From assembly GCA_964291625.2 (NCBI GenBank), contig OZ220089.1, positions 960,001-1,024,000 on the forward strand: 64,000 bases of DNA, given 5' to 3'. Source of the DNA: Candidatus Latescibacterota bacterium. Lineage in GTDB: Bacteria; Latescibacterota; UBA2968; UBA8231. Both the position numbers and the translations under genes were made by a program. Shown piece after piece: positions 3,933 through 29,319 of this stretch. Below the pieces are notes generated by a model that worked only from the letters and a program-made list of their open reading frames with translations, had not been told where the DNA came from and ran no database searches. Each line of letters opens with the position of its first letter. The stretch's first letter is position 1.

Positions 3933-3970
3933 TTCTCCTCCTTCCCCGGCGACAAAGATGGGATCCAAGG

Positions 3971-8227: not shown

Positions 8228-11200
8228 GCCGGCGCCACCTCAGGCTTGGCCTCCGCGGACCCGTCCTGCTCCCAGCGCGGCAGCTCCGCCGCGTACCGGC
8301 GGCGCTCCTCCTCCTCCAGGGTCCGCCAGACCAGGAACTGCTGGCGCACATCGTCGAGGAAGGTGCGCACCACCCGCCGCCAGGCCGACGGGTCGCCCTC
8401 CAGCAGCTCCAGGCCCATCTCCAGGTCGCAGAACCGGGGGTCCGGCCCCGGGCGGATCCGCAGCTCGGCGCGCTGCACCACCCCCTGGTCGAAGGGGGCC
8501 AGCCACACCCGGGCGGCCAGCCCGAGGCGGTCCTCCCCCCGGCGCAGGTCGAGGGACTCCACGTAGAACCCGGCGCCGATCGACTGCTCCCGGTGCTCGG
8601 CCCAGAACTCGGCCTGGAAGGCGGCCAGCCCCAGGGCCTCGCCCCGCGGCAGGGAGAACGGCAGCGGCACCTCGAGGCGGTCTCCCCCGAAGCCGGCGGG
8701 CAGGCTCCAGCGGCGCTCGATCCCCGGCGTGCAGATGCGTCCGGCGAGATGCGCGGGATAGAGGGCCGAGGCGGCCACCAGCAGCACCACGGAGCCGAGG
8801 GTGAGGACCGCCGCCAGGGACGAGTAGTTCAGCTCCAGCCCCTGGAGCCATCCCTGGTGCCCCAGGAGCTGGGCGGCTGTCTGGCCGAGGAGATACCCGG
8901 CCACGGCGCCGACTACCCCCAGGGCCACGGCCTCGGCCATGAACAGCCCGCTCACGTGGGCCGGCGCCAGGCCGACGGCGTTGAAGGTGCCGATCTCGCG
9001 GGTGCGCTCCCACACGGCGCCGAGCATGGTGTTGAGGACGATGAGGGCGGCGATCAGCAGCGGCACCGCCAGCCCCGCCAGGCCCGAGACCGAGGCGGCG
9101 CCGACGGTGTTGATCAGCAGCCGCCGCCCCTCCAGGCCGCCGAAGAGGTTCAGGTCGAGGGTGCGGGCCAGCTCCACCAGGTCCCGGCGGATCTCCTGGC
9201 GGCCGCCGTCGAGGCGGATGCTCACCGAGGTCAGGGTCGCCCCCTCCCAACGCATGAGGGCGGCGAAGGGCAGAACCAGCGTCGAGTTGCCGGGCAGGTG
9301 GGCGAAGACCAGGGGCTCTCCGCCCTGGCCGCCGACCTCGGCCTCGCGCGGCTGCTGGGCCTCCGGGTCCAGCGGCGTCAGGGGCTCGCCGTTGAGGTCG
9401 GGGCGGTCCAGGGCGCCGGGAGCGAGCAGGCCCGCCACGCGGAAGACCTCGCCGAAGATCCGCACCTCCGCCTCTTCCAGCCGCCCGGGGTCGATCCCCA
9501 GGGAATCGGCCAGGGCCACCGGCAGCAGGCAGGCGTCCTCCTCCCCCCGGCGCAGCCAGCGCCCCGCGACCAGGCCCTCGCCAAGCAGCCCCTCGTCCCC
9601 CGCGGTGAGCCCCGCGAACCCCTGGACCCCCACCGCTCGATCCTCCTCCCCCGGCAGGTCCCCGTCCCCCGCGGTGAGTCCGCCGAACCCCTGGACCCCC
9701 ACCGCCCGGTCCTCCTGCCCCAGCAGGCCCCCGTCGCTCTCGGTGAGCCCCGTGGACCGCTGGACCCCCACCGCTCGATCCTCCTCCCTCGGCAGGCCCC
9801 CGTCGCCGGCGGTGAGCCCCGCGGACCGCTGGACCCCCACCGCTCGATCCTCCTGCCCCTGGCGCTCGACCCGGAAGGCGGCCCCCGCGGACGAGGCCGT
9901 CATCCAGGCCCGCGGCGAGACCCGGTCCGCACCGAACCAGTCGCGCAGCATGCGCCAGCCCTCCAGCTCCATCGTCTTCCACCCCGGCATGCGCACGAGG
10001 GCGCCGTCGTACGCGGCCCCCGGCCCGATGTCGACCCAGTTGGTGCGCAGGGAGTCGCGGATCGATGTGAAGGAGAGGACCGAGAAGGTGAGCATGACCA
10101 GGGTGGCGCAGGTCAGACCGGTGCGCCACGGCCGGCGCCGCATCTGGGCCAGGCCGACGGCGACCGAGGCGAGCACCGCCCCCGAGCGCTGCACCCGCGC
10201 GCGCGCCCGCCGGCCCCCGGTCAGCTCCCGCAGCTCGCGGTTCAGCCGCCCCACGCCGAGAGCGGCCACCAGGATCCCGAGGGAGAGGGTGACGAAGCCG
10301 AGGAGGATGATCACCGGCGAGATCGACAGCTCGAAGGCCGGGTGCAGGTAGCGCAGGGCGACGAAGCCCAGCAGGAAGAGGACGAAGTAGCCGGCCACCT
10401 GGCGCCGCAGGCCGACGAAGCCGAAGAGCAGGCGCTCGGCGAAGTGGGCGAAGGGGATCAGCGCCGCCAGCAGGAAGAGGGCGCCCTGCACGACGCCGGA
10501 GCGGGTGCCCTCGACCTCGCGGTAGGCCGCCGCCGCCAGGGCCCAGGCGCGGCGGGCGCGGTCGACGGAGTCGCGGTGGCGCAAGGCGAGGCGGGCTTCC
10601 CCGGCCTCCCGCAGAAGCTCCCCGGAGCGTTCGTGGAAGGCGGCGAGCCGGGCGTTGCGCACCCCGTGGCGAAGCAGGCCCTCGATGCGCTCGCCGTTGA
10701 GGCCGTGCATGTCGGCCGCCACCCGGTGGGCCGTCTCCGGCAGGCGCCCCGGCCCGGCGGCGTACCCCGCCCCCCCGGGTGTCTCCGGCGAGCCGTTGAC
10801 CAGCAGCAGCCGGCGCCCCAGGCCGTAGCGCCCGGTGGACATGACCGCCTTGAAGCGCGTCTCCGGCCGCGCGAAGAGGACGCCCACGGGCTCGGTCCAG
10901 GAGCCGATGCGGTTGCGGTACCCGAAGAGCTCCATCTCCGGCGCCGTCAGGGGCAGGCAGGCGCCGAAGACGGGCGGCTCGGCCTCCAGGGCCGCGTCGA
11001 TCACCTGCAGGCGCTCCGGGGTGATCAGGTTGCGCGGGTCGAAGAGGGAGAGCAGGGCCGTCCCCCGCAGCGGGGCGGTGACGATCTGCACCTCCTCCTC
11101 CTCGCCGTCCATGGTGACGGTGAGGGTCCGCCGCGGCAGCCGGCGCTCGCCGTTCACGCCCCAGTCCGGGGCCTGGGTCACCGCTCCCGTCTCCGGGTCC

Positions 11201-12831
11201 AGCCCGTAGGCCTCCAGCCGCACCGGCTGGGTATAGATGATCCCCGACTCCAGCCCCGGGATGCGGTAGCGGCCCGAGTCGCCGGCCACGGCCAGGAAGT
11301 CGGGCCGCACCCCGCTCAGGGTGGGTTGCCGCAGGCGCACCCGCACCAGCGCCCCGGCCGTGGGCTGGTCCGGCAGATAGCTGCGGGGGCCGTAGTGGAC
11401 GACGTCCCCGTGGACGGTCCCGAAGGCGTCGTCGCCCCAGGCCCATTCGGGGAGTCCGGGATCCCCGGCCAGACCGGCCACGACGTGGGCGAGCAGGTCC
11501 ACCTGGCGCGCCAGCCGGGCGCAGTCCACCTGCCCGGCGAAGTCCGTGGGCGAGTCGAAGCCGGCGCGGCTGTCGTTGACGGTGACGAAGGCCAGGGCCG
11601 GACACCCGGCCAAAGCGGCCACGGACGCGTCGAGGGGGACAGTCAGGGCGAGGCCGCCGAGCCCCTGGCGGGACAGGTCCGGCCTCAGACCGTTGACAAG
11701 CTGCAGGGCGCCCCCCGCGGCCGAGTCCTCGTACGCGGCGGCCAGCTCCAGGACGCGGGACGTGACCGGCGGGACCAGCAGCGAGGTGCGGTACGGGTCC
11801 CGGGGCTTGAACACCCCCAGGCGCGAGCTGCGCGCCGACAGGTCCAGCCCCGCCACGAAGCGCAGGTCGAGGCCGGAGAGCCGCCGCAACAGGGGCGAGT
11901 CCTCTTCCTGGGTCTCGCGCTGGCCGGCGGCCTGCAGCAGCAGCGGCGTGAAGTGGCGCATCCCCGCCAGGTTCTGGAAGTGGCCCGCCGTCCACAGGAG
12001 CACCACGGTGCGCGCCGGCGGTCGCGCCGCCAGACGCCGGGCCAGCTCCAGCAGGGCCGCCGCGCCCGAGGCCTGCTCCGCCCCCGGCGCCAGGGCCGGC
12101 ACCGGCGAGACGGCGTCGTAGTACGCCGTCAGCAGGACCGCCTCCCCCCGCAGCGCCGGGTCCCGCCCCTCGACGATGGCCACGAGGTTCCGCCCGGCGG
12201 CCTCGCGCCAGGACATGCGCCCGGAGAGGCGCACACGCGCTCCCTCTCGGGCCAGCTGCCGCAGGCGGCCGGCCTCGGGCGCCCGCGCGTAGAGCCGCGG
12301 CAGGTCGGCGGGCACGTCGAGGAACTTCAGCTCCGCCTCCTTGCGGTGGGCCCCCGCCGACTCCAGAAACACCACGGCCGCCGCCCCCAGGTGGAAGGCG
12401 TCGACCCAGGCGCGGCCGGAGTCGTAATCGAGGAGCACGACGCGCCCGGCCACCGGCTGGCCCTCGAGGCCGCCGCCGTCCCCGCCGTCGGCCAGCGGCC
12501 CTTCCAGCCCGCCGGGAGGCAGGGTCGGCGTGCGCACGAGGTTGGGCCACACGCCGAAGAGCCTCAGGGATTCGGTCGCCGTCTCCGCGCGGAACCCCTC
12601 GTCGATTGGTACGGGGACGGGGAACTCGTGGCGGTGGATCTCCTCGATGCCGATGGACTGCAGTTCGGCGGTGAGCCAGTCGGCGGCCTCGAGGATCCCG
12701 GGGTAGCCGGTCATGCGCGAGGTGGGGGCGGAGAGGGCGGTGACGGTGCGGCGGAGGTTTTCCTGCAGGTCTGGGGCGGGGTCCGCGGGGGAGGGGGCGG
12801 CCAGGAGGGGGGAGAGGAGGAGCGCAGCCAT
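8224..12831 (-). CDS. Very large membrane protein: N-terminal M28-peptidase-like domain plus FtsX/MacB-like permease domain
   Basis: Signal-like MAALLLSPLLAAP (ATG 12831, GAGAGG upstream), M28-like AYYDAVS..PGAEQASG, TM bundles, and FtsX motif NTMLGAVWERTREIGTFNAVGLAP. Confidence 0.8.
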   Translation of the reverse strand: MAALLLSPLLAAPSPADPAPDLQENLRRTVTALSAPTSRMTGYPGILEAADWLTAELQSIGIEEIHRHEFPVPVPIDEGFRAETATESLRLFGVWPNLVRTPTLPPGGLEGPLADGGDGGGLEGQPVAGRVVLLDYDSGRAWVDAFHLGAAAVVFLESAGAHRKEAELKFLDVPADLPRLYARAPEAGRLRQLAREGARVRLSGRMSWREAAGRNLVAIVEGRDPALRGEAVLLTAYYDAVSPVPALAPGAEQASGAAALLELARRLAARPPARTVVLLWTAGHFQNLAGMRHFTPLLLQAAGQRETQEEDSPLLRRLSGLDLRFVAGLDLSARSSRLGVFKPRDPYRTSLLVPPVTSRVLELAAAYEDSAAGGALQLVNGLRPDLSRQGLGGLALTVPLDASVAALAGCPALAFVTVNDSRAGFDSPTDFAGQVDCARLARQVDLLAHVVAGLAGDPGLPEWAWGDDAFGTVHGDVVHYGPRSYLPDQPTAGALVRVRLRQPTLSGVRPDFLAVAGDSGRYRIPGLESGIIYTQPVRLEAYGLDPETGAVTQAPDWGVNGERRLPRRTLTVTMDGEEEEVQIVTAPLRGTALLSLFDPRNLITPERLQVIDAALEAEPPVFGACLPLTAPEMELFGYRNRIGSWTEPVGVLFARPETRFKAVMSTGRYGLGRRLLLVNGSPETPGGAGYAAGPGRLPETAHRVAADMHGLNGERIEGLLRHGVRNARLAAFHERSGELLREAGEARLALRHRDSVDRARRAWALAAAAYREVEGTRSGVVQGALFLLAALIPFAHFAERLLFGFVGLRRQVAGYFVLFLLGFVALRYLHPAFELSISPVIILLGFVTLSLGILVAALGVGRLNRELRELTGGRRARARVQRSGAVLASVAVGLAQMRRRPWRTGLTCATLVMLTFSVLSFTSIRDSLRTNWVDIGPGAAYDGALVRMPGWKTMELEGWRMLRDWFGADRVSPRAWMTASSAGAAFRVERQGQEDRAVGVQRSAGLTAGDGGLPREEDRAVGVQRSTGLTESDGGLLGQEDRAVGVQGFGGLTAGDGDLPGEEDRAVGVQGFAGLTAGDEGLLGEGLVAGRWLRRGEEDACLLPVALADSLGIDPGRLEEAEVRIFGEVFRVAGLLAPGALDRPDLNGEPLTPLDPEAQQPREAEVGGQGGEPLVFAHLPGNSTLVLPFAALMRWEGATLTSVSIRLDGGRQEIRRDLVELARTLDLNLFGGLEGRRLLINTVGAASVSGLAGLAVPLLIAALIVLNTMLGAVWERTREIGTFNAVGLAPAHVSGLFMAEAVALGVVGAVAGYLLGQTAAQLLGHQGWLQGLELNYSSLAAVLTLGSVVLLVAASALYPAHLAGRICTPGIERRWSLPAGFGGDRLEVPLPFSLPRGEALGLAAFQAEFWAEHREQSIGAGFYVESLDLRRGEDRLGLAARVWLAPFDQGVVQRAELRIRPGPDPRFCDLEMGLELLEGDPSAWRRVVRTFLDDVRQQFLVWRTLEEEERRRYAAELPRWEQDGSAEAKPEVAPA
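9577..9855. repeat. Four intragenic 69-bp (23-aa) tandem repeats
   Basis: EDRAVGVQRSAGLTAGDGGLPRE / EDRAVGVQRSTGLTESDGGLLGQ / EDRAVGVQGFGGLTAGDGDLPGE / EDRAVGVQGFAGLTAGDEGLLGE in the 8224..12831 protein. Confidence 0.9.
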
Positions 12832-12906
12832 TCCTCTCGTCTTGTGACTACACGTTTGGATACGTATTATCGCCAGTAATGGGGGACGTAGGAGACCCGA
12901 AAGAAT

Positions 12907-13172
12907 ATGGGGACACTCACCGTGCCGTTGGGGGTAGCCGATCCTCAAGGCCGCCGTTACGAGATCGTCGAGGCTATAGTGGACCCGGGGCGACTTACAC
13001 GGCCCTGCCGCTTTCGATCCTGGAACGCCTCGGCGTGGTTCCGCACGGCGCCCGGAGGTTCGTCCTCGCCGACGGCCGCCGCGTCGAGGTAGGCTTCGGC
13101 CGGATCTGGATGCGGCTCGACGGCCGCGAGGAGATCTCGCCAGTCGTCTTCCCGGAGGACTGGCTTCGGTGA
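12907..13172 (+). pseudogene. Frameshifted, 3'-truncated clan AA (retropepsin-like) aspartyl protease
   Basis: MGTLTVPLGVADPQGRRYEIVEAIVD continues in another frame as GATYTALPLSILERLGV...FVLADGRRVE...ISPVVF. Adding one A to gac-cc-ggg restores DTGATYT. The usual C-terminal PLLG segment is absent. Confidence 0.75.
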
Positions 13173-13267: not shown

Positions 13268-14476
13268 ATGACGATCGACATGCAGGTCTTGAAGGACGCG
13301 GTCTCGGGGAGGGCCGCGGCGTTTCGGTGCGTGACAGAATACCAACCGGCAGGAGGCCCCGGGGACAAGGTATTTCCCCCGACGTACGAAGGCGGCAAGT
13401 ACGCCACCGAGGAGCGCGTTGATCCTGGCACTGGCGAGATTCGGCCGTGCGTTCTCTTGGACTCCGTGCAGTCGCAGGCCAACCGGATGGAGTTGGCACT
13501 GCTGGAGGCACACCGAGCAGGAAAGGCAAAGCTTCCCCTGCTGGTAACGCGCTTCGATCAGGAAGAACTGCTCAGAAAGTTCTCGGTGACCAGCCTAGAG
13601 GCGCCTCATCGCATTGCAGACGCCCTCTTCCGCGACAGCCTGCTGGACGGGAGGACCTTTCGCAAGTCTGAGAGGGGCCGCGTGCTCGACACTGCGGACA
13701 TCGGCAACGCCACCGGCCTGTTCGGACTGTGCCCGACAGCGCTGGTGTTCGGACTGTGGGACTCCACCGGGCCTCGCGGCGGACTGGGCTGCAAGTTCCA
13801 GCGCGCGGTCGTATCCGAAATCGTGGGGTACGACGCCGTGGCCGGCGTCAAGACGGCAAGTCGCATTGATCCTGCCCAAATCATGCTCGGGGCAGGCCCC
13901 CTGTACGAGCGCCGGTCTCCCGGCGAGGACAGGCCGGATTGGACTCTGGATGAAGGCGCGGGGTCCAGGAAACTCGGCAAGGACAAGAAGGGCAAGCCGT
14001 CCGAGGCCAACCACGGAAACGTGACCCCGAGTGTCGCGGAAGGAGGCTTCACCATTTCCAGGGCACGGCAGACCACCACCCTGTCACTGGCCGTCCTGCG
14101 GCGTCTCCGGTTCCCGCTTGATGAGGCCGGGGATTCTCGCCCCGAGACCGATCTTGCAGCCCGCACCGCCTTGGCGGCCCTGGGTCTGGCGGCGGGCGCC
14201 TTGGCGCGAATCGATACGGACCTGCGTTCCCGCTGCCAGTTGTTCGCCGCGAGCGAGCCGACGTGGGAACTGCTCGATCATCCCGGGCAGCCACCGTCCG
14301 AATTCGAACTTGGTCCCGAAGATGCGCTGGAGCTGTTGGAAGAAGCGGTTGCCGGCGCCAAGGATGCCGGCCTGCCGTGGGAGGGCGAAATCGAGCTGAC
14401 CCCGTCCCCTGACTTGGTAGTACTCCTCCGGCGCAGCCAGGAATTGGCGGTCGCATCGGGAGATGAGGACGCCTGA
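13268..14476 (+). CDS. cas7: Type I-G Cas7 (Csb1/Cas7g)
   Basis: Motifs PAGGPGDKVFPPTY, LLDSVQSQANRMELAL, TSLEAPHRIADA, PTALVFGLWDS and DLRSRCQL. Strong RBS. Confidence 0.93.
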   Translation: MTIDMQVLKDAVSGRAAAFRCVTEYQPAGGPGDKVFPPTYEGGKYATEERVDPGTGEIRPCVLLDSVQSQANRMELALLEAHRAGKAKLPLLVTRFDQEELLRKFSVTSLEAPHRIADALFRDSLLDGRTFRKSERGRVLDTADIGNATGLFGLCPTALVFGLWDSTGPRGGLGCKFQRAVVSEIVGYDAVAGVKTASRIDPAQIMLGAGPLYERRSPGEDRPDWTLDEGAGSRKLGKDKKGKPSEANHGNVTPSVAEGGFTISRARQTTTLSLAVLRRLRFPLDEAGDSRPETDLAARTALAALGLAAGALARIDTDLRSRCQLFAASEPTWELLDHPGQPPSEFELGPEDALELLEEAVAGAKDAGLPWEGEIELTPSPDLVVLLRRSQELAVASGDEDA

Positions 14477-16833
14477 TGTTCGCCCTTGGCCTCCACTACC
14501 TGAACGGGTGGTCGATGGCAGCGGCGGACGGGCCGCGAAAGGAGCGGGCCGAATGGCCGCCGCATCCGGACCGGGTGTTCATGGCGATGGCGGCAGCCTG
14601 GTTCGAGACCGGCGAAGATCCTTCCGAAGGCGAGGCCCTGCGCTGGCTTGAAGCCTTGCCGCCGCCTTCGATTTCGTCCTCGGAGGCTGAGACTCGCGCC
14701 ACTGTCGTTAGCTATGTACCCGTCAACGACGATGGTGGGGGGAAGAAGAGTAGTCCGAAGACCGAGATCGACAAGCTCAGAAACAAAGGCCTGGCTGTCA
14801 TCCCGGAGGATCGGTTGCGCCAGCCCCGTGGTTTTCCGGTTGCCATTCCCCACGACCCGACGGTGCATCTGATCTGGCCAGAGATCGAGGTAGGTACTCA
14901 TCGCGACGCCCTGGAACGGCTGGCCGCCAAGGTCACCCATGTGGGGCATTCCGCCTCCTTTGTACAAGCGTGGCTGGAAGCTAGTCCACCGGACCGCACG
15001 TGGATTCCGGCGACAGGCGTCGCGCTTCGGCGACTGCGCGTGACGAGCCCTGGGCGCTTGAAGAGCCTGGAAACCCGGGTGAACCGAGCCTCCTGGATAG
15101 CCTTCCACGATCTTCGCGGAGAGATCAAGCAAGCTGAAGCGGACCTCAAGGGCATGAAGCAACCGCCAAGGGTGCCCTGGGAGGCATTCCCGGATGTGGT
15201 GATACTGGCCAGTGAGTCCAAGGTCAAGCAGCATCCAGACTATCCCGACGCGAAATCGAGTCACCACGTGCCTGCTGCTGCCAACCTGGTTGACAGCCTG
15301 GTGGACGAGTCGGGAATCACACAGGTCCGATCACTGATCACTGAAGTTAGCGAGCGCGGCGAGCCCCTGTTGGTCAGCGCAAGCGCCTGTGAGGGCGCAG
15401 GCTTCAATGCAATCCCGGCCTCCTTGGCGAAACTGTTGAGCGAGCGCCTGGACACGTCGACCACCAGGACCGTCGTTCAAGCCAATATCGTCAACCATAC
15501 AGGAGCTGACGGCTATGGCCGACTCGCTCGGCAAGCAGTATTCGAAGGAGTGGTTGAGAAGGGAAGCGAATACCTGATGGTTGATGATTTCGTCGGTCAG
15601 GGCGGCACACTGGCAAATCTACGAGGCTGGATCGAGAAAAGGGGCGGCAACGTCGTCGGTGCCGTTGTGCTGGCCGGCAAGCCGTACTCTGCTAAACTGA
15701 ACCCTTCACAGGAGCAACTGCATGAACTCCGACAAGAGCACGGATCAGACTTTGAAGAGTGGTGGAAGGAGCACTTCGGCCACACCTTCGATTGCCTTAC
15801 TCAATCGGAAGCTCGGTACCTCGCCCGCTCCCCGGATGTTGACACCATCGGAGATCGACTTGCTGCGGCAATGCGTAAAGGAAGTGGAAGATGTCACGCA
15901 CGAAGTCCTCGCGAGCAAAAAAGCCACATCGAGGAAATGAAAGCGTGCCTGGATGACCGCTTTCCCAATGGGGAACCCGTGACCCTACGCCCGGCGCCTA
16001 GCCGCTGGCAGGGATACGATAGACCCCTGAAAGACAAGGCCCCCGATGCCTCCAGTTCGGTCTTTGACCCTCGCCTCACAGTCCTCGGCATCAGAGGCCA
16101 GCGCGTGTCCTTACCGGCGACGCTGAAGCTCACGGCGGCCCTGCGCGGCCTATTGACGAAAAAGTGTCCAGAACAGCCGCCGCCCGAGTGGTTCAGCGGC
16201 CACCGTCCGGACGGTACGCCCACCGCCGAACCGCATCTGGCTTTGACTCCGCTCCCCTTCGTTGGCGCGGAACATGCAGATGGCCGCATTATGGGTCTGG
16301 CCATAGTCCTGCCGGCAGACTTGGACCAAGAGGTGGCCGGAAGGTGTCTATCCTTCCTGCACGATTCCGTTACCGGCTTGCCGTGCGAACATCCGTTGTT
16401 CGACGGCCAGTGGTTCGAGTGCGCCATTGACTTGGAAACCCGCGAACGTCCGCCGACGAACCTGGATCCCGGCACCTGGACAAGGGAGTCATGCGTCTGG
16501 GCAAGCGTGACCCCGGTGGTCCTGAACCGACATTTCGACGGCAAGGACAAGTGGGAGCGAGCCGCCGAGAGCGTCAAGGAGATGTGCGGGCACATCGGTC
16601 TGCCGAGACCTCGCCAGGTTCTGCTGCACCCGGTTTCCTTGGTCGAAGGCGTTCCCCATTCGAGGGAGTTTCCACAGTTGACGCGCAAAGGCGGCGGCGG
16701 ACGACGGAGCCACAACCATGCGGTGATCGTCTTCGACGAGCCGGTGCGCGGGCCGGTGCTCCTGGGGGCAGGACGTTTCCGGGGGTATGGTCTTTGCCGC
16801 CCGCTGGATGAACGAGGTCGGGAGCGTGGCTGA
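14476..16833 (+). CDS. csb2: Type I-G Csb2 (Cas5/Cas6-like fusion) with an internal PRTase domain insertion
   Basis: N-half EWPPHPDRVFMAM, YVPVND, VTHVGHSAS. C-half SGH..DGTP...PHLA..PLPFVG..HADG, WASVTP, FDEPVRGPVLLGAGRFRGYGLCRP. At 785 aa it is about 260 aa longer than I expect for Csb2. Confidence 0.92.
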   Translation: MFALGLHYLNGWSMAAADGPRKERAEWPPHPDRVFMAMAAAWFETGEDPSEGEALRWLEALPPPSISSSEAETRATVVSYVPVNDDGGGKKSSPKTEIDKLRNKGLAVIPEDRLRQPRGFPVAIPHDPTVHLIWPEIEVGTHRDALERLAAKVTHVGHSASFVQAWLEASPPDRTWIPATGVALRRLRVTSPGRLKSLETRVNRASWIAFHDLRGEIKQAEADLKGMKQPPRVPWEAFPDVVILASESKVKQHPDYPDAKSSHHVPAAANLVDSLVDESGITQVRSLITEVSERGEPLLVSASACEGAGFNAIPASLAKLLSERLDTSTTRTVVQANIVNHTGADGYGRLARQAVFEGVVEKGSEYLMVDDFVGQGGTLANLRGWIEKRGGNVVGAVVLAGKPYSAKLNPSQEQLHELRQEHGSDFEEWWKEHFGHTFDCLTQSEARYLARSPDVDTIGDRLAAAMRKGSGRCHARSPREQKSHIEEMKACLDDRFPNGEPVTLRPAPSRWQGYDRPLKDKAPDASSSVFDPRLTVLGIRGQRVSLPATLKLTAALRGLLTKKCPEQPPPEWFSGHRPDGTPTAEPHLALTPLPFVGAEHADGRIMGLAIVLPADLDQEVAGRCLSFLHDSVTGLPCEHPLFDGQWFECAIDLETRERPPTNLDPGTWTRESCVWASVTPVVLNRHFDGKDKWERAAESVKEMCGHIGLPRPRQVLLHPVSLVEGVPHSREFPQLTRKGGGGRRSHNHAVIVFDEPVRGPVLLGAGRFRGYGLCRPLDERGRERG
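15154..15936 (+). other. In-frame inserted phosphoribosyltransferase domain (TraN-like / polyvalent-protein PRTase), residues ~227-487 of Csb2
   Basis: MKQPPRVPWEAFPDVVI..VKQHPDY..AKS, NAIP, VVQANIVNHTGADGYGRLARQ, type I PRTase PRPP-binding motif YLMVDDFVGQGGTL (15571-15612), GKPYSAKL, WWKEHFGHTFDCLTQSEARYL. Confidence 0.85.
15722..15940 (+). CDS. Putative overprinted small ORF (72 aa) in the +1 frame of the PRTase insert
   Basis: MNSDKST...PRMLTPSEIDLLRQCVKEVEDVTHEVLASKK. It has an amphipathic helical C-half, and its TGA falls at the insert boundary (ATGA 15937-15940). Confidence 0.4.
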   Translation: MNSDKSTDQTLKSGGRSTSATPSIALLNRKLGTSPAPRMLTPSEIDLLRQCVKEVEDVTHEVLASKKATSRK

Positions 16834-19800
16834 GTTGAAGCATGGGCCGATGTCCGACGAGCGGAAGCTCGAGTCGATCAAGAGCCTGACGAAGGGTGAG
16901 GCTGGCGTCTCCGGCCAGAGCGACGTTCAGATGGGGCACGCCGAGTTGAGCAGTACAGATTTCGCCGAGTTCTTTGCTGCATTGTGGGGCCATCCCCCCT
17001 TCGCGTGGCAGCAGGCACTTGCGGATAGAGTCCTGGGAAATGCAGAGACGCCTTGGCCCGAAGCCATCGCCCTGCCGACCGCCTCCGGCAAGACCGCGTG
17101 CCTGGACATAGCGATCTTCGCGCTGGCGGTTCAGGCGGTTCGGCTGGACCGGAAGCAGGCGATCACCGCGCCGCGCCGCATTTTCTTCGTGGTGGATCGG
17201 CGCGTAATAGTGGATGAGGCCCATGAACGCGCCTGCCGGATGGCGAAGAAACTGGTAGATGCTGAGGACGGCATTCTGAAGACGGTTGCGGACAATCTCC
17301 GTAGAATCGCTCGCGGGGGGATGGCCGGATCGGCGAAGGAACTTCCGCTCGCTGCCCATGTACTGCGCGGCGGCATGTACCGGTCGGAGGCATGGGCGCG
17401 CCATCCGCTGCAACCGGCGGTCGTGGCCTCGACCGTCGATCAGGTTGGCTCCCGCCTGTTGTTCCGCGCCTACGGACGCAGCCCCGGCACCTGGCCGATC
17501 TACGCCGGGCTCATCGCCAACGACAGCCTGATCCTGCTCGACGAAGCGCACTGCGCGCAGCCGTTCCTGCAGACCTTGCAGGCGGTGAGGCGTTTCCGGA
17601 CGTGGGCGCTTGCTCCTCTGGATCGTCCGTTTCATCCCGTGGTCATGTCGGCCACACCTCCTCCTGGAACAGCGGACGTCTTCGAAGACCCGTCAGGCGA
17701 AGGTCGTGATCCGGATCATCCGCTGGGTCGCCGACAACTGGCGCGCAAGCCCACCGTATTGCAGACAGTCGAGAGAGCCCGGGGGAAGCGGGCCTCGAGT
17801 GAGCTGGCCAAAGCCTTGGCCGAGTCCGCCTCCGGGTTGATCAACGACGACCGCCGCGCCGTCGTGGTGTTCGTCAACCGAGTCGCCGCGGCGCGGGAGA
17901 CTCACCGGCTGTTGGCCTCCGACTACCGGGACCGTGCTCTCCTGCTCACCGGGCGCATGCGTCCCGTCGACAAGGATATCGTCCAGCAACGCCTGCAATT
18001 ACTGGGGTCTGCTCTGGCCACCGAGCGCTCTCTGGATGCGCCATGGATCGTCGTCGCTACGCAGACTCTGGAGGTCGGGGCCGACCTCGATTTCGATGGT
18101 CTTGTGACGGAATGCGCCAGCCTCGACGCCCTGCGTCAGCGCTTTGGCCGCTTGAACCGCATGGGACGACCGATCGAAGCGCGAGCAGTGATCCTCGTGC
18201 GCGGCGACCAAGACGACTCCGGGAAGGCGCAGGACGACCCCGTTTACGGCAAGGCCCTGACCAATACCTGGACATGGCTTAACAAGCTCAAGAACGAGGA
18301 CGATGAGGTTGACTTCGGCATCGCCCATATCGCGGAATACCTCCCCCAGGGCGATGCACTGGACCGGCTCAATGCCCCCGCCGTCGATGCCCCGGTGATG
18401 CTTCCCGCCCACGTCGATTGCTGGGCGCAGACAGCGCCGAAGCCGGCACCCTCCCCTGACGTGGCCCTGTTTCTGCGCGGCCCTCGGGAAGGCGCTGCTG
18501 ACGTACAGGTCTGCTGGCGCGCCGACTTGCTTCTGACGACCGAGGAAGGGCGAATGCACGCGCTGCAGTCATTGTACTTGTGTCCGCCGTGCAGCAGCGA
18601 AACGCTGCCGGTGCCGATCAGCATGTTCAGGGGTTGGCTGGCCGGAGAAGACGCGGAAGATGACAGCAGCGACGTGGAGGGCAGCGCCGCGCCTGGCGAT
18701 AGGGACGAAGAGAGCGTCCTCCATCCAGGTCGCGAGGTGATCCGGTGGAAAGGAGCCGAAACGAAGGCAGGGGACATCACGGCCGACCCCGGGGACATTC
18801 GTCCGGGCGATGTTATCGTCGTCCCCGCCACGCACCCCCTCCCGCGTCATCGGCTTGGAGACCTGTCGCCGGACCTGGACGTAGGAGACCGCGCCTGCCG
18901 TCTCGCGCGGGCAAGACCCATCCTGCGCATCCACAGGGACTTGGTGGACGCCTGGCCGGACACCGGCTCAACCAGCGAAGGCGCTCGTGAGTTGCTGAAG
19001 GACCTGGATCGTCGATTCGAGGACGACCCGGATGGGATCACCGGTGACTTGCGCCACCTGCTCACAGAGCTTTCTGACTCGCCCGAAGCGACTTGGCTAT
19101 CAACAGCGGCAAGGGAACTCTGCGCGGAGTCCAGACTCGACCACGCCTACCACGTGGTCGGCAACAGCATCGTCCTCGTCGGACGCCGTCCGATACCTTC
19201 GCTCACCCACGGCGCCGACAGCTTCAGCGACGAAGACGACGTGGCCACTTCCGGCACATCGCATGGCAATGGGGCCCCCGTTAGACTTCCGACCCACCTG
19301 TCCGGGGTCGAGGCCCTCGCCCGCTGCCATGCCTCCGCATGTGGATTGCCCGAAGACCTGGTCGAGACCATTGCCCGCGCGGGCCGGCTCCACGACTTGG
19401 GCAAGACCGATCGACGGTTCCAGTCCCTGCTGCGGGGCGGCGCTCCCTGGCTCGGCGGGGAACCGCTCGCCAAATCGGCTGGACTCCCCAGAACCCGCGC
19501 TGCCCGGGCGCGGGCGCGCAGGGACTCCGGCTATCCGGAAGGGGGGCGACATGAACTGTTGTCGACAAGGCTGGCCGAGAGTGCGCCGGCCCTGCTTCCT
19601 GACCGGGAGGACCTGCGCGATCTGATCCTCCACCTGATTGCCAGTCATCACGGCCACTGCCGGCCCTTCGCGCCGGTGGTGAGCGACGAGCAGGGCGTGG
19701 ACGTGGACTTCGAGTGGAGCGGACATCGCGCGCAATGGTCCGGGGCCACTGGGCTCGAACGCCTCGACTCCGGGGTCTCAGACCGATACTGGAAGCTGGT

Positions 19801-19903
19801 GCGGCTCTATGGCTGGTGGGGCTTGGCTTGGCTGGAGGCTCTTCTGCGGCTTGCGGACTGGCGGCAGAGCGATCTGGAGGAGGAGACAGATGACGGCCAG
19901 TGA
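16826..19903 (+). CDS. cas3: Type I-G Cas3 (SF2 helicase with C-terminal HD nuclease)
   Basis: LPTASGKT, VVDRRVIVD, STVDQVGSRLLFR, LLDEAH, VATQTLEVGADLDFD, QRFGRLNR, then GRLHDLGK, RHELLS, SHHG and WWGLAWLEALLRLAD. The start is uncertain: GTG 16826 overlapping the csb2 end, or ATG 16931. Confidence 0.95.
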   Translation: MAELKHGPMSDERKLESIKSLTKGEAGVSGQSDVQMGHAELSSTDFAEFFAALWGHPPFAWQQALADRVLGNAETPWPEAIALPTASGKTACLDIAIFALAVQAVRLDRKQAITAPRRIFFVVDRRVIVDEAHERACRMAKKLVDAEDGILKTVADNLRRIARGGMAGSAKELPLAAHVLRGGMYRSEAWARHPLQPAVVASTVDQVGSRLLFRAYGRSPGTWPIYAGLIANDSLILLDEAHCAQPFLQTLQAVRRFRTWALAPLDRPFHPVVMSATPPPGTADVFEDPSGEGRDPDHPLGRRQLARKPTVLQTVERARGKRASSELAKALAESASGLINDDRRAVVVFVNRVAAARETHRLLASDYRDRALLLTGRMRPVDKDIVQQRLQLLGSALATERSLDAPWIVVATQTLEVGADLDFDGLVTECASLDALRQRFGRLNRMGRPIEARAVILVRGDQDDSGKAQDDPVYGKALTNTWTWLNKLKNEDDEVDFGIAHIAEYLPQGDALDRLNAPAVDAPVMLPAHVDCWAQTAPKPAPSPDVALFLRGPREGAADVQVCWRADLLLTTEEGRMHALQSLYLCPPCSSETLPVPISMFRGWLAGEDAEDDSSDVEGSAAPGDRDEESVLHPGREVIRWKGAETKAGDITADPGDIRPGDVIVVPATHPLPRHRLGDLSPDLDVGDRACRLARARPILRIHRDLVDAWPDTGSTSEGARELLKDLDRRFEDDPDGITGDLRHLLTELSDSPEATWLSTAARELCAESRLDHAYHVVGNSIVLVGRRPIPSLTHGADSFSDEDDVATSGTSHGNGAPVRLPTHLSGVEALARCHASACGLPEDLVETIARAGRLHDLGKTDRRFQSLLRGGAPWLGGEPLAKSAGLPRTRAARARARRDSGYPEGGRHELLSTRLAESAPALLPDREDLRDLILHLIASHHGHCRPFAPVVSDEQGVDVDFEWSGHRAQWSGATGLERLDSGVSDRYWKLVRLYGWWGLAWLEALLRLADWRQSDLEEETDDGQ

Positions 19904-20819
19904 GTCTCCGGGCTTGTTGCTCAACGGCCTCGATGGCAGCAATCCACTGGGATTCCTCGCGGCCGTCGGGGTCTTGAGGACTGTGGCTGAGGCCGACTCT
20001 TGCCCGGACTGGCGAGTGCGTTGGGAACTGCGGGAGGGCAGCTGGTCCCCTGTGCTACTGGGAGACACAACCCTGGCCGCAGATGGTCTGATCCAAATCC
20101 TCATGCCCACCCTGATGGGAATGAAGGGCCATCCTGCGCTATCCTTCGCCGATGACCTGACGCTGAGTTGCGCTGACTTCCGGGGAGTGGCTCTGTCCGC
20201 TTGCGACGCTGCCGATCCCAGCGATCGACGCCATGCCGACTTCATGGCCGCCTTCGGCTGCGACAGCCACCCCATCTCTCCCAAGGATCCGCGCATCCAG
20301 GACACAGCGCTGCGAACCATGAGCGGCGCAGGACATCAGCACTTCATCGGCTCGATGCGAGAACTGGTGCAAGAGACCGATGCCGCTCATTTGCGCGCTT
20401 CCCTGTTCGAGCCGTGGCAGTATGCGGATCCCAAGCCGAGCCTTCGCTGGGATCCTGTGGACGACCGCAGGTACGCCCTACGTTGGAGAGCTCCTTCGGG
20501 CGACCCGGTGCGCACCATGCGCGGGGCCAACCGTCTCGCCGTGGAGGCACTGCCCCTTTTTCCGACCGCGCCCGGGGAACGGCGGCTCCAAACGACCGGC
20601 TTTTCCCAGCGCCGGGGCCAGGGCGTGCTGTTCACTTGGCCGATCTGGGAAGGGCCATTGAACATCGATACCCTGCGCTCACTGCTCGGCATGGCCGAAC
20701 TGCAGGAGCCTCGCCCGGATCGAGAGATTCTTCGAGCAAGAGGAGTCGTCGAGATCTACCGGAGTCAGCGCATCACCGAGGGCAAGTATCGCAACTTCAC
20801 CCCTGCTCTACCTGCATGA
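19890..20819 (+). CDS. cas8g: Type I-G Cas8g (short Csb3/Cas8u2-type large subunit)
   Basis: GLDGSNPLGFLAAVGVLR, LRWDPVDDRRYALR, GANRLAVEALPLFP, FTWPIWEGPL. ATG 19890 with a GGAGGAG RBS overlaps the cas3 end. Confidence 0.85.
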   Translation: MTASESPGLLLNGLDGSNPLGFLAAVGVLRTVAEADSCPDWRVRWELREGSWSPVLLGDTTLAADGLIQILMPTLMGMKGHPALSFADDLTLSCADFRGVALSACDAADPSDRRHADFMAAFGCDSHPISPKDPRIQDTALRTMSGAGHQHFIGSMRELVQETDAAHLRASLFEPWQYADPKPSLRWDPVDDRRYALRWRAPSGDPVRTMRGANRLAVEALPLFPTAPGERRLQTTGFSQRRGQGVLFTWPIWEGPLNIDTLRSLLGMAELQEPRPDREILRARGVVEIYRSQRITEGKYRNFTPALPA

Positions 20820-24185: not shown

Positions 24186-27100
24186 GTCTTCCGGGGCGAA
24201 GCTGCCCCGGCCTCATTGAAGCTTCTTTGGTGAAGTCTTGCCGGAGATTGCCCGAGGCGTCTTCCGGGGCGAAGCTGCCCCGGCCTCATTGAAGCAGGGG
24301 GGGGAGCTGATCGACGATCCACGACATGATGTCTTCCGGGGCGAAGCTGCCCCGGCCTCATTGAAGCGGGGGGGTGGCCCGGGGGGTTGGGGGAGAACCT
24401 GGCCTGTCTTCCGGGGCGAAGCTGCCCCGGCCTCATTGAAGCCGCCGCGGCCGCCGGCCCGCCGGGCCCGGCCGCCCAGTCTTCCGGGGCGAAGCTGCCC
24501 CGGCCTCATTGAAGCAGGTTGGCGCTTGTCAGGTAGAGGATCGACGGCGCGTCTTCCGGGGCGAAGCTGCCCCGGCCTCATTGAAGCGACGTAGTGGGGA
24601 TTGTCGTCCAACTCCAGGTATCCGTCTTCCGGGGCGAAGCTGCCCCGGCCTCATTGAAGCCCGGGAACTCGGCGAGGAGCTGGCCGAACGCCACGCGTCT
24701 TCCGGGGCGAAGCTGCCCCGGCCTCATTGAAGCGTGAAGTCGGCGCCCGAGGACGCCCCGCTGACGATGTCTTCCGGGGCGAAGCTGCCCCGGCCTCATT
24801 GAAGCCAGGCGGAGGTTGGGTTCGTCCGTCTCGCCCTCGGCCGGTCTTCCGGGGCGAAGCTGCCCCGGCCTCATTGAAGCGACAGCAGGCCGTAGGAGGC
24901 CGCCGTCGCCCCGGCGGGTCTTCCGGGGCGAAGCTGCCCCGGCCTCATTGAAGCGGGCGGACCCTTGTCGCTACGTATGGCTTCAAGGAACGTCTTCCGG
25001 GGCGAAGCTGCCCCGGCCTCATTGAAGCCGCGGGCCCGTCACGGCGCCTCGCCGCCGGCGCCCCGGTCTTCCGGGGCGAAGCTGCCCCGGCCTCATTGAA
25101 GCGTGTACTGGCCCGCGTCGCTGGCGGCCCCGGTCTGTTGTCTTCCGGGGCGAAGCTGCCCCGGCCTCATTGAAGCTGGAGTTAGGAATACGGCCATGCG
25201 ACCGCCGATTGTGTCTTCCGGGGCGAAGCTGCCCCGGCCTCATTGAAGCAGGGCCTCCAGCGGGGTATGAGAGTCCACGACCACGGGTCTTCCGGGGCGA
25301 AGCTGCCCCGGCCTCATTGAAGCATCCCAAGGCGCTCGTCCCCTTCAACGCGATCCTGGGTCTTCCGGGGCGAAGCTGCCCCGGCCTCATTGAAGCCGAG
25401 GCCCTGGAGTCCAACTTCATCACTCAGATCCTGTCTTCCGGGGCGAAGCTGCCCCGGCCTCATTGAAGCGGAACGAATGCGGCAACGGCCGTGTCGTAGC
25501 TTACCAGTCTTCCGGGGCGAAGCTGCCCCGGCCTCATTGAAGCCCCTCCGGGCCCGGCCGCTACCACTTCCGGGTGCGCGCGTCTTCCGGGGCGAAGCTG
25601 CCCCGGCCTCATTGAAGCGCCCTGAACGCCCGGGACAGGTGGGGTACCTTCATGGTGTCTTCCGGGGCGAAGCTGCCCCGGCCTCATTGAAGCCCGGGGG
25701 TGATGGACTACGACTTGACGGAGGTCGAGTCTTCCGGGGCGAAGCTGCCCCGGCCTCATTGAAGCCGACGAGCTCGGCGGGGAGGATCTGCAGAAGCTGG
25801 GTCTTCCGGGGCGAAGCTGCCCCGGCCTCATTGAAGCCGGTGAAGCAGGGTCGCGTCCCAGGCCTTGACCTCCTGTCTTCCGGGGCGAAGCTGCCCCGGC
25901 CTCATTGAAGCCCCGTCGTCTTCATCTTCCCGGTCGTCGCCGGGGTCTTGTCTTCCGGGGCGAAGCTGCCCCGGCCTCATTGAAGCCGGAACATCCAGGC
26001 GGCGCAGGACACGGAATCGGCCTTGTCTTCCGGGGCGAAGCTGCCCCGGCCTCATTGAAGCCCGAGGTCGATTCCACGGACCGGATGCCGGTGAGCCGTC
26101 TTCCGGGGCGAAGCTGCCCCGGCCTCATTGAAGCCTCGACCAGAACCCCACCGACATGCCGGACACGTCCGTCTTCCGGGGCGAAGCTGCCCCGGCCTCA
26201 TTGAAGCGTGAATGCGATCCGGGCCTTGCCGCCCTTCCGGTAGGTCTTCCGGGGCGAAGCTGCCCCGGCCTCATTGAAGCGAGATCACCGGGTTCACCAG
26301 CGGCACGGTCACCACCGTCTTCCGGGGCGAAGCTGCCCCGGCCTCATTGAAGCCGGCCGGCCGTGGCGCTTGTTCCACACGCCGAGCCCGGACCAGTCTT
26401 CCGGGGCGAAGCTGCCCCGGCCTCATTGAAGCCCCGGGCCCCGCGGCCAGGTCGAAGCGCGCGAACGCCGTCTTCCGGGGCGAAGCTGCCCCGGCCTCAT
26501 TGAAGCATAGGGCACGGGCACATCGGCGTCCGGGCGAGGGGAGTCTTCCGGGGCGAAGCTGCCCCGGCCTCATTGAAGCGGCACGACCAGCTGGCTCTCC
26601 ATCCACGCGATGTTCCGGTCTTCCGGGGCGAAGCTGCCCCGGCCTCATTGAAGCGATCCCGCCCGGGCGCACGTGCAGCAGATCCAAAGGGGTCTTCCGG
26701 GGCGAAGCTGCCCCGGCCTCATTGAAGCACGGATCCCCTCTTCTCGGCGAGTGCGATCAGATGGTCTTCCGGGGCGAAGCTGCCCCGGCCTCATTGAAGC
26801 AGGTTGTCGACCGTGATCGTGGCCGTGGACCGGAGCGTCTTCCGGGGCGAAGCTGCCCCGGCCTCATTGAAGCACGGTGATCGGCACCGTGACCGACACC
26901 CCGCCGGACGTCTTCCGGGGCGAAGCTGCCCCGGCCTCATTGAAGCCTCTTGTCAGTTGCCATACCTGCTTCACCGCCTTTCGTGTCTTCCGGGGCGAAG
27001 CTGCCCCGGCCTCATTGAAGCGTATCCCGTGCGTCATCGACGCGCCTCTATCGGGTGTCTTCCGGGGCGAAGCTGCCCCGGCCTCATTGAAGCACGTCCA

Positions 27101-29319
27101 GGTAGTGCCACGGCCCCGGGACGCGGCCCTTGTCTTCCGGGGCGAAGCTGCCCCGGCCTCATTGAAGCACGTAGAAGCTGTAATACTCCCCGGGCGCAAT
27201 CAGCCACGTCTTCCGGGGCGAAGCTGCCCCGGCCTCATTGAAGCCCGGGACTATCGGGGCCCTCCCGGCCCCCTCGAAGATGTCTTCCGGGGCGAAGCTG
27301 CCCCGGCCTCATTGAAGCGACGGCGGCGGGGCCTTCCTTCAGAAGTGGGAGAACAGTCTTCCGGGGCGAAGCTGCCCCGGCCTCATTGAAGCAACGACAG
27401 CTAGCTGCGCGTTGCGATCCGCCGCCTTGTCTTCCGGGGCGAAGCTGCCCCGGCCTCATTGAAGCTACGCCTATGGGAGTCGCTTCAGCATGTCCCGCCA
27501 GTCTTCCGGGGCGAAGCTGCCCCGGCCTCATTGAAGCTGGGAGAGCGTGCGGACCCTGTCCCTATGGAGCGCCGAGTCTTCCGGGGCGAAGCTGCCCCGG
27601 CCTCATTGAAGCTCCTTCTTCGTCCAGTCCTTCCCGGCCGGCTGCAGGCGGGTCTTCCGGGGCGAAGCTGCCCCGGCCTCATTGAAGCGACCAGCCCGTC
27701 CGTCTTCACTTGTCGCCCTCCTCCGCTGTCTTCCGGGGCGAAGCTGCCCCGGCCTCATTGAAGCCCGCTCGGACCCGGCCCGGTATGCCCACGTCTACGG
27801 AGTCTTCCGGGGCGAAGCTGCCCCGGCCTCATTGAAGCCCCAGGCCGTGGTAGTGCAGCGGCGCCGTCGCCGTCCGTCTTCCGGGGCGAAGCTGCCCCGG
27901 CCTCATTGAAGCACGCCGATTCACGCCGATTCACGCCGGAGTCCTCGAGGTCTTCCGGGGCGAAGCTGCCCCGGCCTCATTGAAGCCGATGGCCGTCGTT
28001 GGTCGACGGCTCGCGGGTGGTGGCGTCTTCCGGGGCGAAGCTGCCCCGGCCTCATTGAAGCGGGATGAACTCGATCGAGAGACCGCGGAGGATGCGAGGT
28101 CTTCCGGGGCGAAGCTGCCCCGGCCTCATTGAAGCTGGGTGGCCATGCTGTCCCTCCGTGGGGTGGGTGATCGTCTTCCGGGGCGAAGCTGCCCCGGCCT
28201 CATTGAAGCTTGGATAGCGGGGTGTAGTTGTCCGTCACACGGATGGTGTCTTCCGGGGCGAAGCTGCCCCGGCCTCATTGAAGCACCGTCACCCGCTCAG
28301 GGGATCTATCCATACCCGTATGTCTTCCGGGGCGAAGCTGCCCCGGCCTCATTGAAGCCGCCTTCAGTCATTACCACACGTAACCACGCCGCCGGTCTTC
28401 CGGGGCGAAGCTGCCCCGGCCTCATTGAAGCGGATTGACGGGGCGAAGGGTCTTGAGCAGGGCCGAGTCTTCCGGGGCGAAGCTGCCCCGGCCTCATTGA
28501 AGCGCGTTGAGGATGTAGAGGCCGGTCTTGAGGTTCACCGTCTTCCGGGGCGAAGCTGCCCCGGCCTCATTGAAGCAGGTGCGGACACACTTCGGCTGGT
28601 TGTGCCGGACCGGTCTTCCGGGGCGAAGCTGCCCCGGCCTCATTGAAGCGCTTGTACCCCCTCCAGACGCCTATACGGGCCCCAGAGTCTTCCGGGGCGA
28701 AGCTGCCCCGGCCTCATTGAAGCGCCGTGTCCGACCTGCCGGCCGCCGGCGGGGCCTCGTGTCTTCCGGGGCGAAGCTGCCCCGGCCTCATTGAAGCTTG
28801 TCCAGCGCCTGGCGGGTCAGGCGGAGGGAGCGGGGTCTTCCGGGGCGAAGCTGCCCCGGCCTCATTGAAGCGCCAACAGGGAGGCTTTCGAAGCCTACCG
28901 CCGCGGGGTCGTCTTCCGGGGCGAAGCTGCCCCGGCCTCATTGAAGCGGGCCTCTCTGCGTCCTACGGGCGATCTGCGGCGGTCGTCTTCCGGGGCGAAG
29001 CTGCCCCGGCCTCATTGAAGCACAAGAGGCACCAGGGCCTCCAGATGCGCGATGGCCGCCTGTCTTCCGGGGCGAAGCTGCCCCGGCCTCATTGAAGCCG
29101 TATAGCGCCGGGCTTGACCTACCCTTCCCTCACGTCTTCCGGGGCGAAGCTGCCCCGGCCTCATTGAAGCTCGCTCGGAAACGGCACCAACAACCCGCGC
29201 GGCGGGGGTCTTCCGGGGCGAAGCTGCCCCGGCCTCGTGGACGATTGAAGCGAGCCGTCACCTACATCGGCGGGGTCCTGGGTCTTCCGGGGCGAAGCTG
29301 CCCCGGCCTCCTTGAAAGC
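24186..29319 (+). CRISPR. Type I-G CRISPR array: 70 repeats and 69 spacers; repeat GTCTTCCGGGGCGAAGCTGCCCCGGCCTCATTGAAGC (37 bp)
   Basis: Counted by eye: 68 apparently identical repeats from 24186 to 29134, then two variant repeats at 29208 and 29282. Spacers are mostly 35-40 bp (one 42, last 30). The repeat has a CCGGGGC..GCCCCGG hairpin and an ATTGAAGC 3' end. Leader position and distal degeneracy both indicate + orientation. Confidence 0.98.

Follow-up and report, generated by a model that had tools for sequence, protein, structure and literature searches.

Does an open reading frame (ORF) of 72 codons that lies out of frame within a CRISPR gene encode a protein of its own and, if so, what would that protein do? 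The question is raised by a type I-G CRISPR-Cas locus in a 64,000-nucleotide stretch of DNA from Candidatus Latescibacterota bacterium (assembly GCA_964291625.2, contig OZ220089.1, positions 960,001 to 1,024,000 of the forward strand), which we call the window and to which all coordinates refer. Here the gene csb2 carries an insert that encodes a phosphoribosyltransferase (PRT) domain resembling the plasmid protein KfrC, and the small ORF overlaps the 3' part of this insert in the +1 frame (Table 1). The best overall reading, to which we give a probability of about 0.6, is that the small ORF is an overprinted, antitoxin-like partner gene of the KfrC-like PRT domain.

The ORF starts with ATG and, by its coordinates modulo 3, is in the +1 frame relative to the 785-codon frame of csb2. 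Its position (15722-15940) and its peptide are as given in an earlier note made from the sequence of the window. In the sequence ...gaggaaATGAaagcg..., its TGA (15938-15940) overlaps an ATG of the csb2 frame (15937-15939, Met488). The length of the ORF is unremarkable, since other stop-free runs in csb2 reach 122 and 67 codons in the +1 frame, 120, 126 and 76 codons in the +2 frame and up to 312 codons in antisense. In bacteria, claims of out-of-frame overlapping genes seldom find acceptance, since the length of an open frame by itself proves nothing; here several independent lines of evidence are at hand.

To look for selection we used a codon alignment of the csb2 gene of the window with 29 uninterrupted homologues. 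Two further genes were left out because one contains a stop (locus L003) and the other a frameshift (L030). The tests were done on 28 csb2 sequences that are less than 95% identical to each other, and the overlap with the small ORF (csb2 codons 416-484) was compared with 32 control windows elsewhere in the gene. Pairwise synonymous-codon identity was 0.808 over the overlap compared with 0.505 elsewhere (standard deviation 0.047, maximum 0.594; z 6.4), which is the suppression of synonymous variation that the earlier note had suggested looking for. The entropy of the third codon position of frame 0 dropped over the small ORF to 0.25-0.8 from approximately 1.2-1.4. At 15859-15912 the first position of frame 0 was more variable (entropy 0.76-0.97) than the third (0.61-0.65), which points to a constrained frame with its wobble at frame-0 position 1.

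Resampling of synonymous codons gave a mean expectation of 0.146 per sequence for an open +1 frame, and the frame is open in 27 of the 28 genes. The ATG of the small ORF is present in 27 of 28 (0.55 expected), and a Shine-Dalgarno sequence of the form (A/G/C)AGGAG precedes it in 24 of 28, unaffected by changes of the frame-0 residue among Q, K, E and R. The fraction of changes that are synonymous in the +1 frame was 0.21-0.33, as against 0.09-0.12 in control regions, and the +1 replacements were conservative, with a mean BLOSUM62 score of -0.2 to -0.3 compared with -1.2 to -1.4 in control regions. Over codons 464-484, where frame 0 reads as a linker rich in G, S and R, it is the +1 frame that is better conserved. 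The sense +1 frame and a codon-aligned antisense frame share the wobble position, so phase alone cannot separate them. An antisense ORF at 15745-15927 was considered and rejected; it is open in 11 of 28 genes, a chance level (0.47 expected per sequence), has stops within the most conserved stretch, and its replacements score -1.14 on the BLOSUM scale versus -0.20 for the +1 frame. By these comparisons, the +1 frame is conserved and under selection of the coding type.

The small ORF is also found beyond fused csb2 genes. It was present in every locus read that has the 3' part of the enzyme domain, that is, in 38 loci recognised by its motif and in L030, where the motif is one residue off. In stand-alone enzyme genes the small ORF passes the enzyme stop, by 37 nucleotides in L044 and by 25 in L053, and in L053 the residues RMLTPSE are preserved through changes that alter frame 0. 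The cassette of L044 lies directly 3' of an ORF that resembles the C-terminal half of Csb2. All 14 loci read on viral contigs have the +1 ORF, open over 61-86 codons, at a frame-0 identity of 39-55%; in several of them it lies within ORFs that range from 500 to more than 1200 codons. Their +2 frame is open over 5-42 codons in 13 cases and over 83 in one. In all 11 plasmid loci read (IncP-1, IncU, Acinetobacter, Azotobacter and others), open stretches measure 60-92 codons in the +1 frame and 10-51 in the +2 frame. Taking viral and plasmid loci together, the small ORF persists despite diverged nucleotides, at a frame-0 identity of 32-55%. A crude resampling of the last 50 codons of the domain in 24 distant loci gave 16 open +1 frames versus 2.7 expected, and no open +2 frame versus 2.6 expected. 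In an in-frame deletion variant (L031/L077), the core of the PRT domain and the first two thirds of the small ORF are lost together.

None of the plasmid records read annotates the small ORF, with the gene tables of PLSDB being incomplete. At the IncU plasmid locus (L108), the kfrC-like gene lies two small genes downstream of an annotated antirestriction protein. At four of the viral loci (L089, L098, L099 and L100), the open frames around the PRT domain measure 1000 to more than 1200 codons. We presume that frames of this length resemble the 'polyvalent' multi-domain proteins known from phages and conjugative elements.

The small gene also occurs by itself. A search of the phylum with the enzyme domain returned weak, stop-ridden matches in eight genomes, and these are solo small genes in which the enzyme frame has decayed. 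Solo genes lie directly 5' of cas3g in L078 and L079 (TIGR02621, E 6.6e-154 and 9.5e-114) and also in L074, L075 and L083. Among seven distinct solo copies (one copy of L080 was entered twice), entropy at codon positions 1, 2 and 3 was 0.51, 0.35 and 0.70, and there were no stops in the frame of the small gene compared with 30 and 27 in the remaining frames, which include that of the enzyme. With a profile of the small protein, 36 matching places came up in 22 of the 168 genomes of the phylum, and 34 of them are free of stops. Of 1.84 billion representative proteins, 325 matched this profile at E ≤ 0.001, 94 of them at E ≤ 1e-10; most have 55-90 residues and, where named, they are called only 'hypothetical protein'. 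The called small proteins and the solo copies have a start methionine at or near the same position. Among the loci read, the enzyme never occurs without the small ORF, and solo copies occur where the enzyme query found only remnants.

One genome (L124, G053) has nine paralogues of the small gene within 17 kb, at 1638-7001, 16265-16639 and 18111-18401. Seven form an array, and two flank a complete type I-G operon without the insert together with a second cas3g. Many of these paralogues have an acidic C-terminal tail. The array is interspersed with ORFs that, from their translations, we take to resemble nucleotidyltransferases, DUF4258 proteins and zinc-ribbon antitoxins, that is, genes of toxin-antitoxin type. 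Three genomes have a fused csb2 and extra solo copies 3-17 kb away (L125 in G050, L126 in G142 and L080 in G167), and in L080 two copies of the small gene stand in tandem in one open frame. Among relatives of the small protein, P0280 is fused to a helix-turn-helix (HTH) domain like that of MqsA/Aca2 and P0381 carries three tandem MLTP.EIE.LRQ repeats.

For the small protein, scans of Pfam and NCBIfam gave sub-threshold noise alone, and neither PADLOC nor PHROGs gave a match. In the ESM Atlas it matched only unnamed 'hypothetical protein' clusters of 64-71 residues (best score 0.91). The predicted structure has a disordered segment (residues 1-20), a helix (22-31), a conserved loop with PRMLTP and a long helix (42-71), with a predicted local distance difference test score (pLDDT) of 74; a Foldseek search of this model against the PDB gave no match at E ≤ 0.001, the best being 2.4. 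We found neither an annotation nor a publication of the overlapping small gene, and a literature search of limited breadth, without supplements, turned up no paper on an ORF overlapping kfrC or the PRT insert in Csb2. From the comparisons of fused, stand-alone, viral, plasmid and solo copies, it is very likely that the small ORF is a real, translated gene.

The overlapped domain is predicted to have the PRT fold. Pfam PF00156 scored 20.4 bits on the insert (E 3.4e-4) and did not reach its gathering cutoff of 26.3, and the insert matches phrog_22413, a family whose function is not known (E 3.7e-54). The AlphaFold2 model of the PRT domain has a pLDDT of 90, and in Foldseek it matched ComF (E 2e-6) and OPRT, XPRT and APRT with probability 1.00 and E 2e-6 to 4e-4, at modest TM-scores of 0.3-0.5; the toxin ShosT (8zvc) was among the matches (E 7e-5). 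In sequence, PADLOC gave one weak match to PRTase_III-A (E 0.02) and otherwise none. All 29 full-length fused homologues examined have an unbroken [VIL]DDF[VI]GQGGT, the motif of the phosphoribosyl pyrophosphate (PRPP) loop, and the residues of the loop are invariant in the alignment of stand-alone homologues. Stand-alone relatives of approximately 248 residues number more than 2140, and a few bear the name 'phosphoribosyltransferase'. The N-terminal part of IncP-1 KfrC is 39-41% identical to the insert over 95-97% of the domain, and the IncU plasmid homologues are 36% identical. The insert ends near residue 470-488 and is followed by Csb2, and its neighbours are cas genes, so neither the C-terminal part nor the operon of KfrC is found here. 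One protein, P0239, has an MqsA/Aca2-like HTH domain fused to the PRT domain.

Met227 of Csb2 (ATG 15154-15156) aligns with the start methionine of stand-alone PRT proteins. It is present in 24 of the 28 fused genes (one more has GTG), usually with AAGGAG directly before it, and may be a relic start or an internal start. The earlier note had suggested that the insert may be a complete two-gene cassette, and had called the enzyme TraN-like. A cassette of an enzyme and a small overlapping partner is supported, in that the +1 ORF occurs wherever the 3' part of the domain does among the loci read. The toxin/antitoxin-like relation that the note attached to it is plausible, given the modelled complex and the toxicity reported for a homologous domain. 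The label 'TraN-like' is not supported; the homologues found are annotated as KfrC or phosphoribosyltransferase.

Prediction of a complex between the small protein and the PRT domain gave a score of 0.89 (0.88, 0.89 and 0.89 in separate runs), and the best of three controls scored 0.00. Among solved complexes, 58 of 80 attained this mark, as against 2 of 110 mismatched pairs; these counts are approximate here because our own alignments were used. Contacts agreed between runs by at least 91%, and the pLDDT of the partner was at least 73. The predicted interface comprises domain residues 39-49, 77-99, 105-116 and 128-133, which we take to be the pyrophosphate (PPi) loop and the flexible loop beside the invariant Q111 and N113. 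On the basis of the model, the small protein probably binds the PRT domain.

What such binding would do can be approached from a plasmid homologue. According to PMC8124265, the PRT domain of KfrC from plasmid RA3 is toxic in excess, attempts to clone the truncation kfrC1-249 failed and toxicity was lost on a DDT-to-AAA change. In the IncU homologue L108, a cut at codon 249 would also drop approximately the last 11 codons of the overlapping ORF. This fits the idea of a partner gene and is not evidence for it. A precedent exists in ShosT, which PMC11961720 presents as a PRT-fold toxin with an antitoxin. That the small protein inhibits the PRT enzyme is a tentative proposal, to which we give somewhat less than even odds.

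Put together, the proposal runs as follows. A small protein, of 72 residues here and 55-90 elsewhere, would be translated from its own conserved ATG and Shine-Dalgarno sequence. Enzyme and small gene would make up one old, mobile two-gene cassette that exists as stand-alone genes, as part of plasmid kfrC and within long ORFs on viral contigs. In this lineage the cassette presumably entered csb2 in frame, at the linker that joins its Cas5-like and Cas6-like halves. The 'linker' that leads in frame 0 from the enzyme back into Csb2 would then be the small gene's own nucleotides, read in the csb2 frame. With its helical hairpin the small protein may bind the PRT domain at the face formed by the PPi loop and the flexible loop, and in this way could restrain a potentially toxic PRT activity as an antitoxin or immunity protein does. 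Solo and multi-copy versions beside type I-G cas genes might be orphan immunity genes.

Several points weigh against this proposal. The homologues are related to each other, and the counts given above therefore overstate their independence. A few distant homologues (L098-L100, L104 and L110) have LT.SEI..LR in degenerate form. The case for translation of the small ORF is made by comparing sequences, and that for binding by a model whose predicted interface excludes the PRPP loop (domain residues 146-154), so that inhibition is inferred and not seen. The toxic homologue belongs to the IncU plasmids and shares only approximately 36% identity with the insert, and PMC8124265 did not consider the overlapping ORF. 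Scans of Pfam and NCBIfam did not find in the small protein the DNA-binding domain that is typical of type II antitoxins. Finally, solo and multi-copy genes persist in genomes where the enzyme query gave no full PRT match, which is unexpected for a plain cis-acting antitoxin; either the assumption of orphan immunity or another function is therefore needed.

Another function is the substance of the alternative that survives best, namely that the small protein is real and its main job is something other than neutralisation. It might be a cofactor, a chaperone or an assembly subunit of the PRT domain, or a partner of the type I-G system that acts with Cas3g or in the regulation of the cas operon. 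The genomic company of the small gene speaks for this, with solo copies directly 5' of cas3g, paralogues on both sides of an insert-less type I-G operon and its second cas3g, and the L044 cassette next to a Csb2 C-half-like ORF. The lack of a full PRT match to the enzyme query in these genomes and a predicted interface that avoids the PRPP loop point the same way. Set against this, the small gene is also conserved in plasmids and viral contigs without nearby cas genes, where the enzyme is therefore its constant companion; the modelled complex, at 0.89 compared with 0.00 for the best control and with the same reservations as above, speaks for binding of the PRT domain; and an array of paralogues among genes that we presume to be of toxin-antitoxin type resembles arrays of immunity genes. 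We consider a main job of this kind rather unlikely.

It is very unlikely that there is no independent gene and that programmed ribosomal frameshifting instead gives the enzyme, or the N-terminal half of Csb2 plus the enzyme, an alternative C-terminus that ends at the stop at 15940. The position of the +1 stop at the insert boundary would suit frameshifting, and in some database proteins (P0269 and P0390) the N-terminal part of the PRT domain is joined in frame to small-ORF sequence; however, these may be sequencing frameshifts or deletions. Frameshifting would leave the conserved ATG (27 of 28) and Shine-Dalgarno sequence (24 of 28) at the start of the small ORF unaccounted for, as well as the start methionine that solo copies and called small proteins share, and no slippery site turned up, in work that included no search aimed at one.

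Still less probable is a constraint on the nucleic acid, such as an RNA structure, an internal promoter or ribosome-binding site for downstream genes or a recombination site, with the open frame as a by-product. Nucleotide conservation is very high at 15775-15860 and the small-ORF segment recurs beside cas3g starts, as such a constraint would have it. By contrast, the solo copies have codon periodicity and no stops versus 27-30 in the other frames, the +1 replacements are conservative and the ORF is kept at 32-55% frame-0 identity. An RNA element was rejected as a candidate. The segment had no Rfam match at E ≤ 1, and its RNAalifold consensus over 277 columns is weak (-12.8 kcal/mol) with one compensatory pair of 29. 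That a functionless frame stays open by chance in GC-rich DNA, where csb2 has many alternative-frame runs as long or longer, is refuted by the whole of the conservation evidence as far as sequence comparison allows.

The 785-residue product of the host gene is a type I-G Csb2, which TIGR02165 matches in two separate stretches (E 7e-85); the PADLOC Cas56g models match residues 1-245/265 and 490-780 (E 1.5e-118), so that both halves belong to the family. Alignment with 10 insert-less Csb2 proteins delimits an extra segment from approximately residue 218 to 480-489, with the N-terminal half stopping near residue 217 and homology resuming near residues 480-489, at approximately nucleotides 15915-15940. 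The statement in the earlier note that the small ORF ends exactly at the insert boundary is correct to within approximately 10 codons, because Csb2 homology resumes over this range.

The same note had suggested that the ATGA overlap could allow separate translation of the Cas6-like half, so that the locus might give up to four products. This is not borne out by the 28 csb2 genes, in which the codon at 15937 is ATG in 12, TTG in seven and CTN in nine; many homologues also have a small ORF whose stop comes four codons sooner. A restart at this ATG was therefore rejected as a conserved signal. The overlap is probably a by-product of a Met/Leu-Lys dipeptide, because Met-Lys in the csb2 frame gives ATGA automatically.

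Table 1. Coordinates in the window of the small ORF, its host gene and the surrounding type I-G locus
Feature	Coordinates	Strand	Basis or remark
csb1 / cas7g, type I-G backbone subunit	13268..14476	+	PF09617 E 5e-53, TIGR02570 E 4e-19
csb2 (Cas5-Cas6 fusion) with KfrC-like PRT insert, single 785-codon frame, host of the small ORF	14476..16833	+	
PRT-type-I (KfrC-like) enzyme domain within csb2, from Met227	15154..15885	+	
PRPP-binding loop VDDFVGQGGT of the enzyme domain	15580..15609	+	
Shine-Dalgarno-like AGGAG, 7 nucleotides upstream of the small-ORF ATG	15710..15714	+	read from sequence
Putative 72-codon overprinted gene, +1 frame of csb2	15722..15940	+	
In-frame ATG (csb2 Met488) overlapping the small-ORF TGA	15937..15939	+	judged incidental
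Cas6-like C-terminal half of csb2	15940..16833	+	PADLOC Cas56g 490-780; alignment with insert-less Csb2
cas3g	16787..19903	+	TIGR02621 E 4.5e-218
Cas3-extension gene	19809-20819		
CRISPR array, approximately 66 repeats, period approximately 74 nucleotides	24257..29310	.	Tandem Repeats Finder

The CRISPR array downstream suggests that the locus is a working CRISPR-Cas system. Read from its first ATG, the cas3g ORF overlaps the end of csb2 by 47 nucleotides (16787-16833). Upstream of the cas genes lies a 1574-codon ORF on the minus strand (8224-12948) with a 69-nucleotide unit repeated four times at 9585-9859. A small ORF at 12879-13172 looks like a retropepsin (ILERLGVVPH..RRFVLADG) and recurs at the 5' edge of type I-G loci; ORFs of this kind also adjoin solo small genes (L075, L076 and L080), and one is fused to the small protein in P0261.

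Searches with the insert region matched 384 proteins at E ≤ 0.001, and the 120 of these that were listed are mostly approximately 785 residues long and 65-80% identical. A scan of genome contigs gave 65 loci, and the titles of insert carriers span several phyla. By record titles, the csb2 fusion (L001-L033) is found in Latescibacterota, Binatia, Nitrospira/Nitrospirales, Gammaproteobacteria, Terriglobia, Entotheonella and Dehalococcoidia at 50-78% identity, and this spread over many named taxa suggests that the whole fused gene has moved horizontally. Variants in decay include L003, with a TAG within the PRPP loop (codon 374 of csb2), L030, with its frameshift in the PRT part, L036, in which the locus is split with a transposase gene in between, and the in-frame deletion of the PRT core in L031/L077. 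In L046, csb2 is a 5'-truncated remnant, and the small ORF, the Cas6-like half and cas3g are kept.

In some genomes the host gene has been deleted and the overlapping gene kept, and selection on the two frames can therefore be separated. The family is unannotated and accompanies more than 2140 stand-alone enzymes, a PHROG of unknown function and KfrC of RK2, R751 and RA3. It offers a hypothesis for the reported toxicity, and for the truncation that could not be cloned, of RA3 KfrC. It also draws attention to an accessory module, as yet unexplored, of type I-G CRISPR effector complexes, and is a reminder that the 'linker' of a fusion protein can be another gene in a different frame. A more speculative and, in our judgement, improbable extension is that the PRT domain in Csb2 and its overprinted inhibitor form a suicide or guard module of the type I-G Cascade. 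The small protein would be short-lived, and its loss through translation shut-off or attack on the complex would unleash the enzyme. The flanking solo genes would be a host repertoire of immunity against KfrC-like PRT effectors, which plasmids carry as kfrC beside traM and viral contigs carry within long multi-domain proteins, and the hidden gene would also be an unrecognised player in the biology of IncP-1 and IncU plasmids.

The arrangement can be compared with four known systems. Cas11 small subunits arise by internal translation within cas8 genes from in-frame starts and are a piece of the same protein. Like these, the small ORF would be a hidden second product within a type I cas gene; unlike them, it is out of frame and would have arrived with a foreign insert. 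Type II toxin-antitoxin systems likewise consist of two co-inherited genes. The partner here resembles their antitoxins in being small and labile-looking, with a disordered N-terminus and predicted binding to the enzyme, in having orphan copies and in that some relatives of the pair are fused to MqsA/Aca2-like HTH domains (P0239 and P0280). It differs in lying almost wholly inside the enzyme gene in another frame, where the usual overlap is a few bases, in having no DNA-binding domain that we found and in that neutralisation is inferred.

The pair here would also resemble ShosTA, in which an enzyme of the PRT fold has a toxic activity that a partner protein counters (PMC11961720). ShosA, however, is a separate DNA-binding protein with an indirect mode of action (type IV) and there is no overprinting of the two genes, whereas the partner here is a helical hairpin of approximately 70 residues that is predicted to bind the enzyme directly. 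The fourth system is KfrC of IncP-1 (RK2, R751) and IncU (RA3) plasmids. Its N-terminal approximately 235 residues are homologous to the insert, it has a PRT type I domain with a DD motif that, for RA3, PMC8124265 reports as toxic in excess, and all 11 plasmid loci read have an open +1 frame with LT.SEI..LR at the corresponding position. KfrC runs on in frame 0 into an alpha-helical C-terminal domain and belongs to a kfrA-kfrB-kfrC operon, with kfrC abutting traM in IncP-1, whereas here the domain is embedded in a CRISPR protein.

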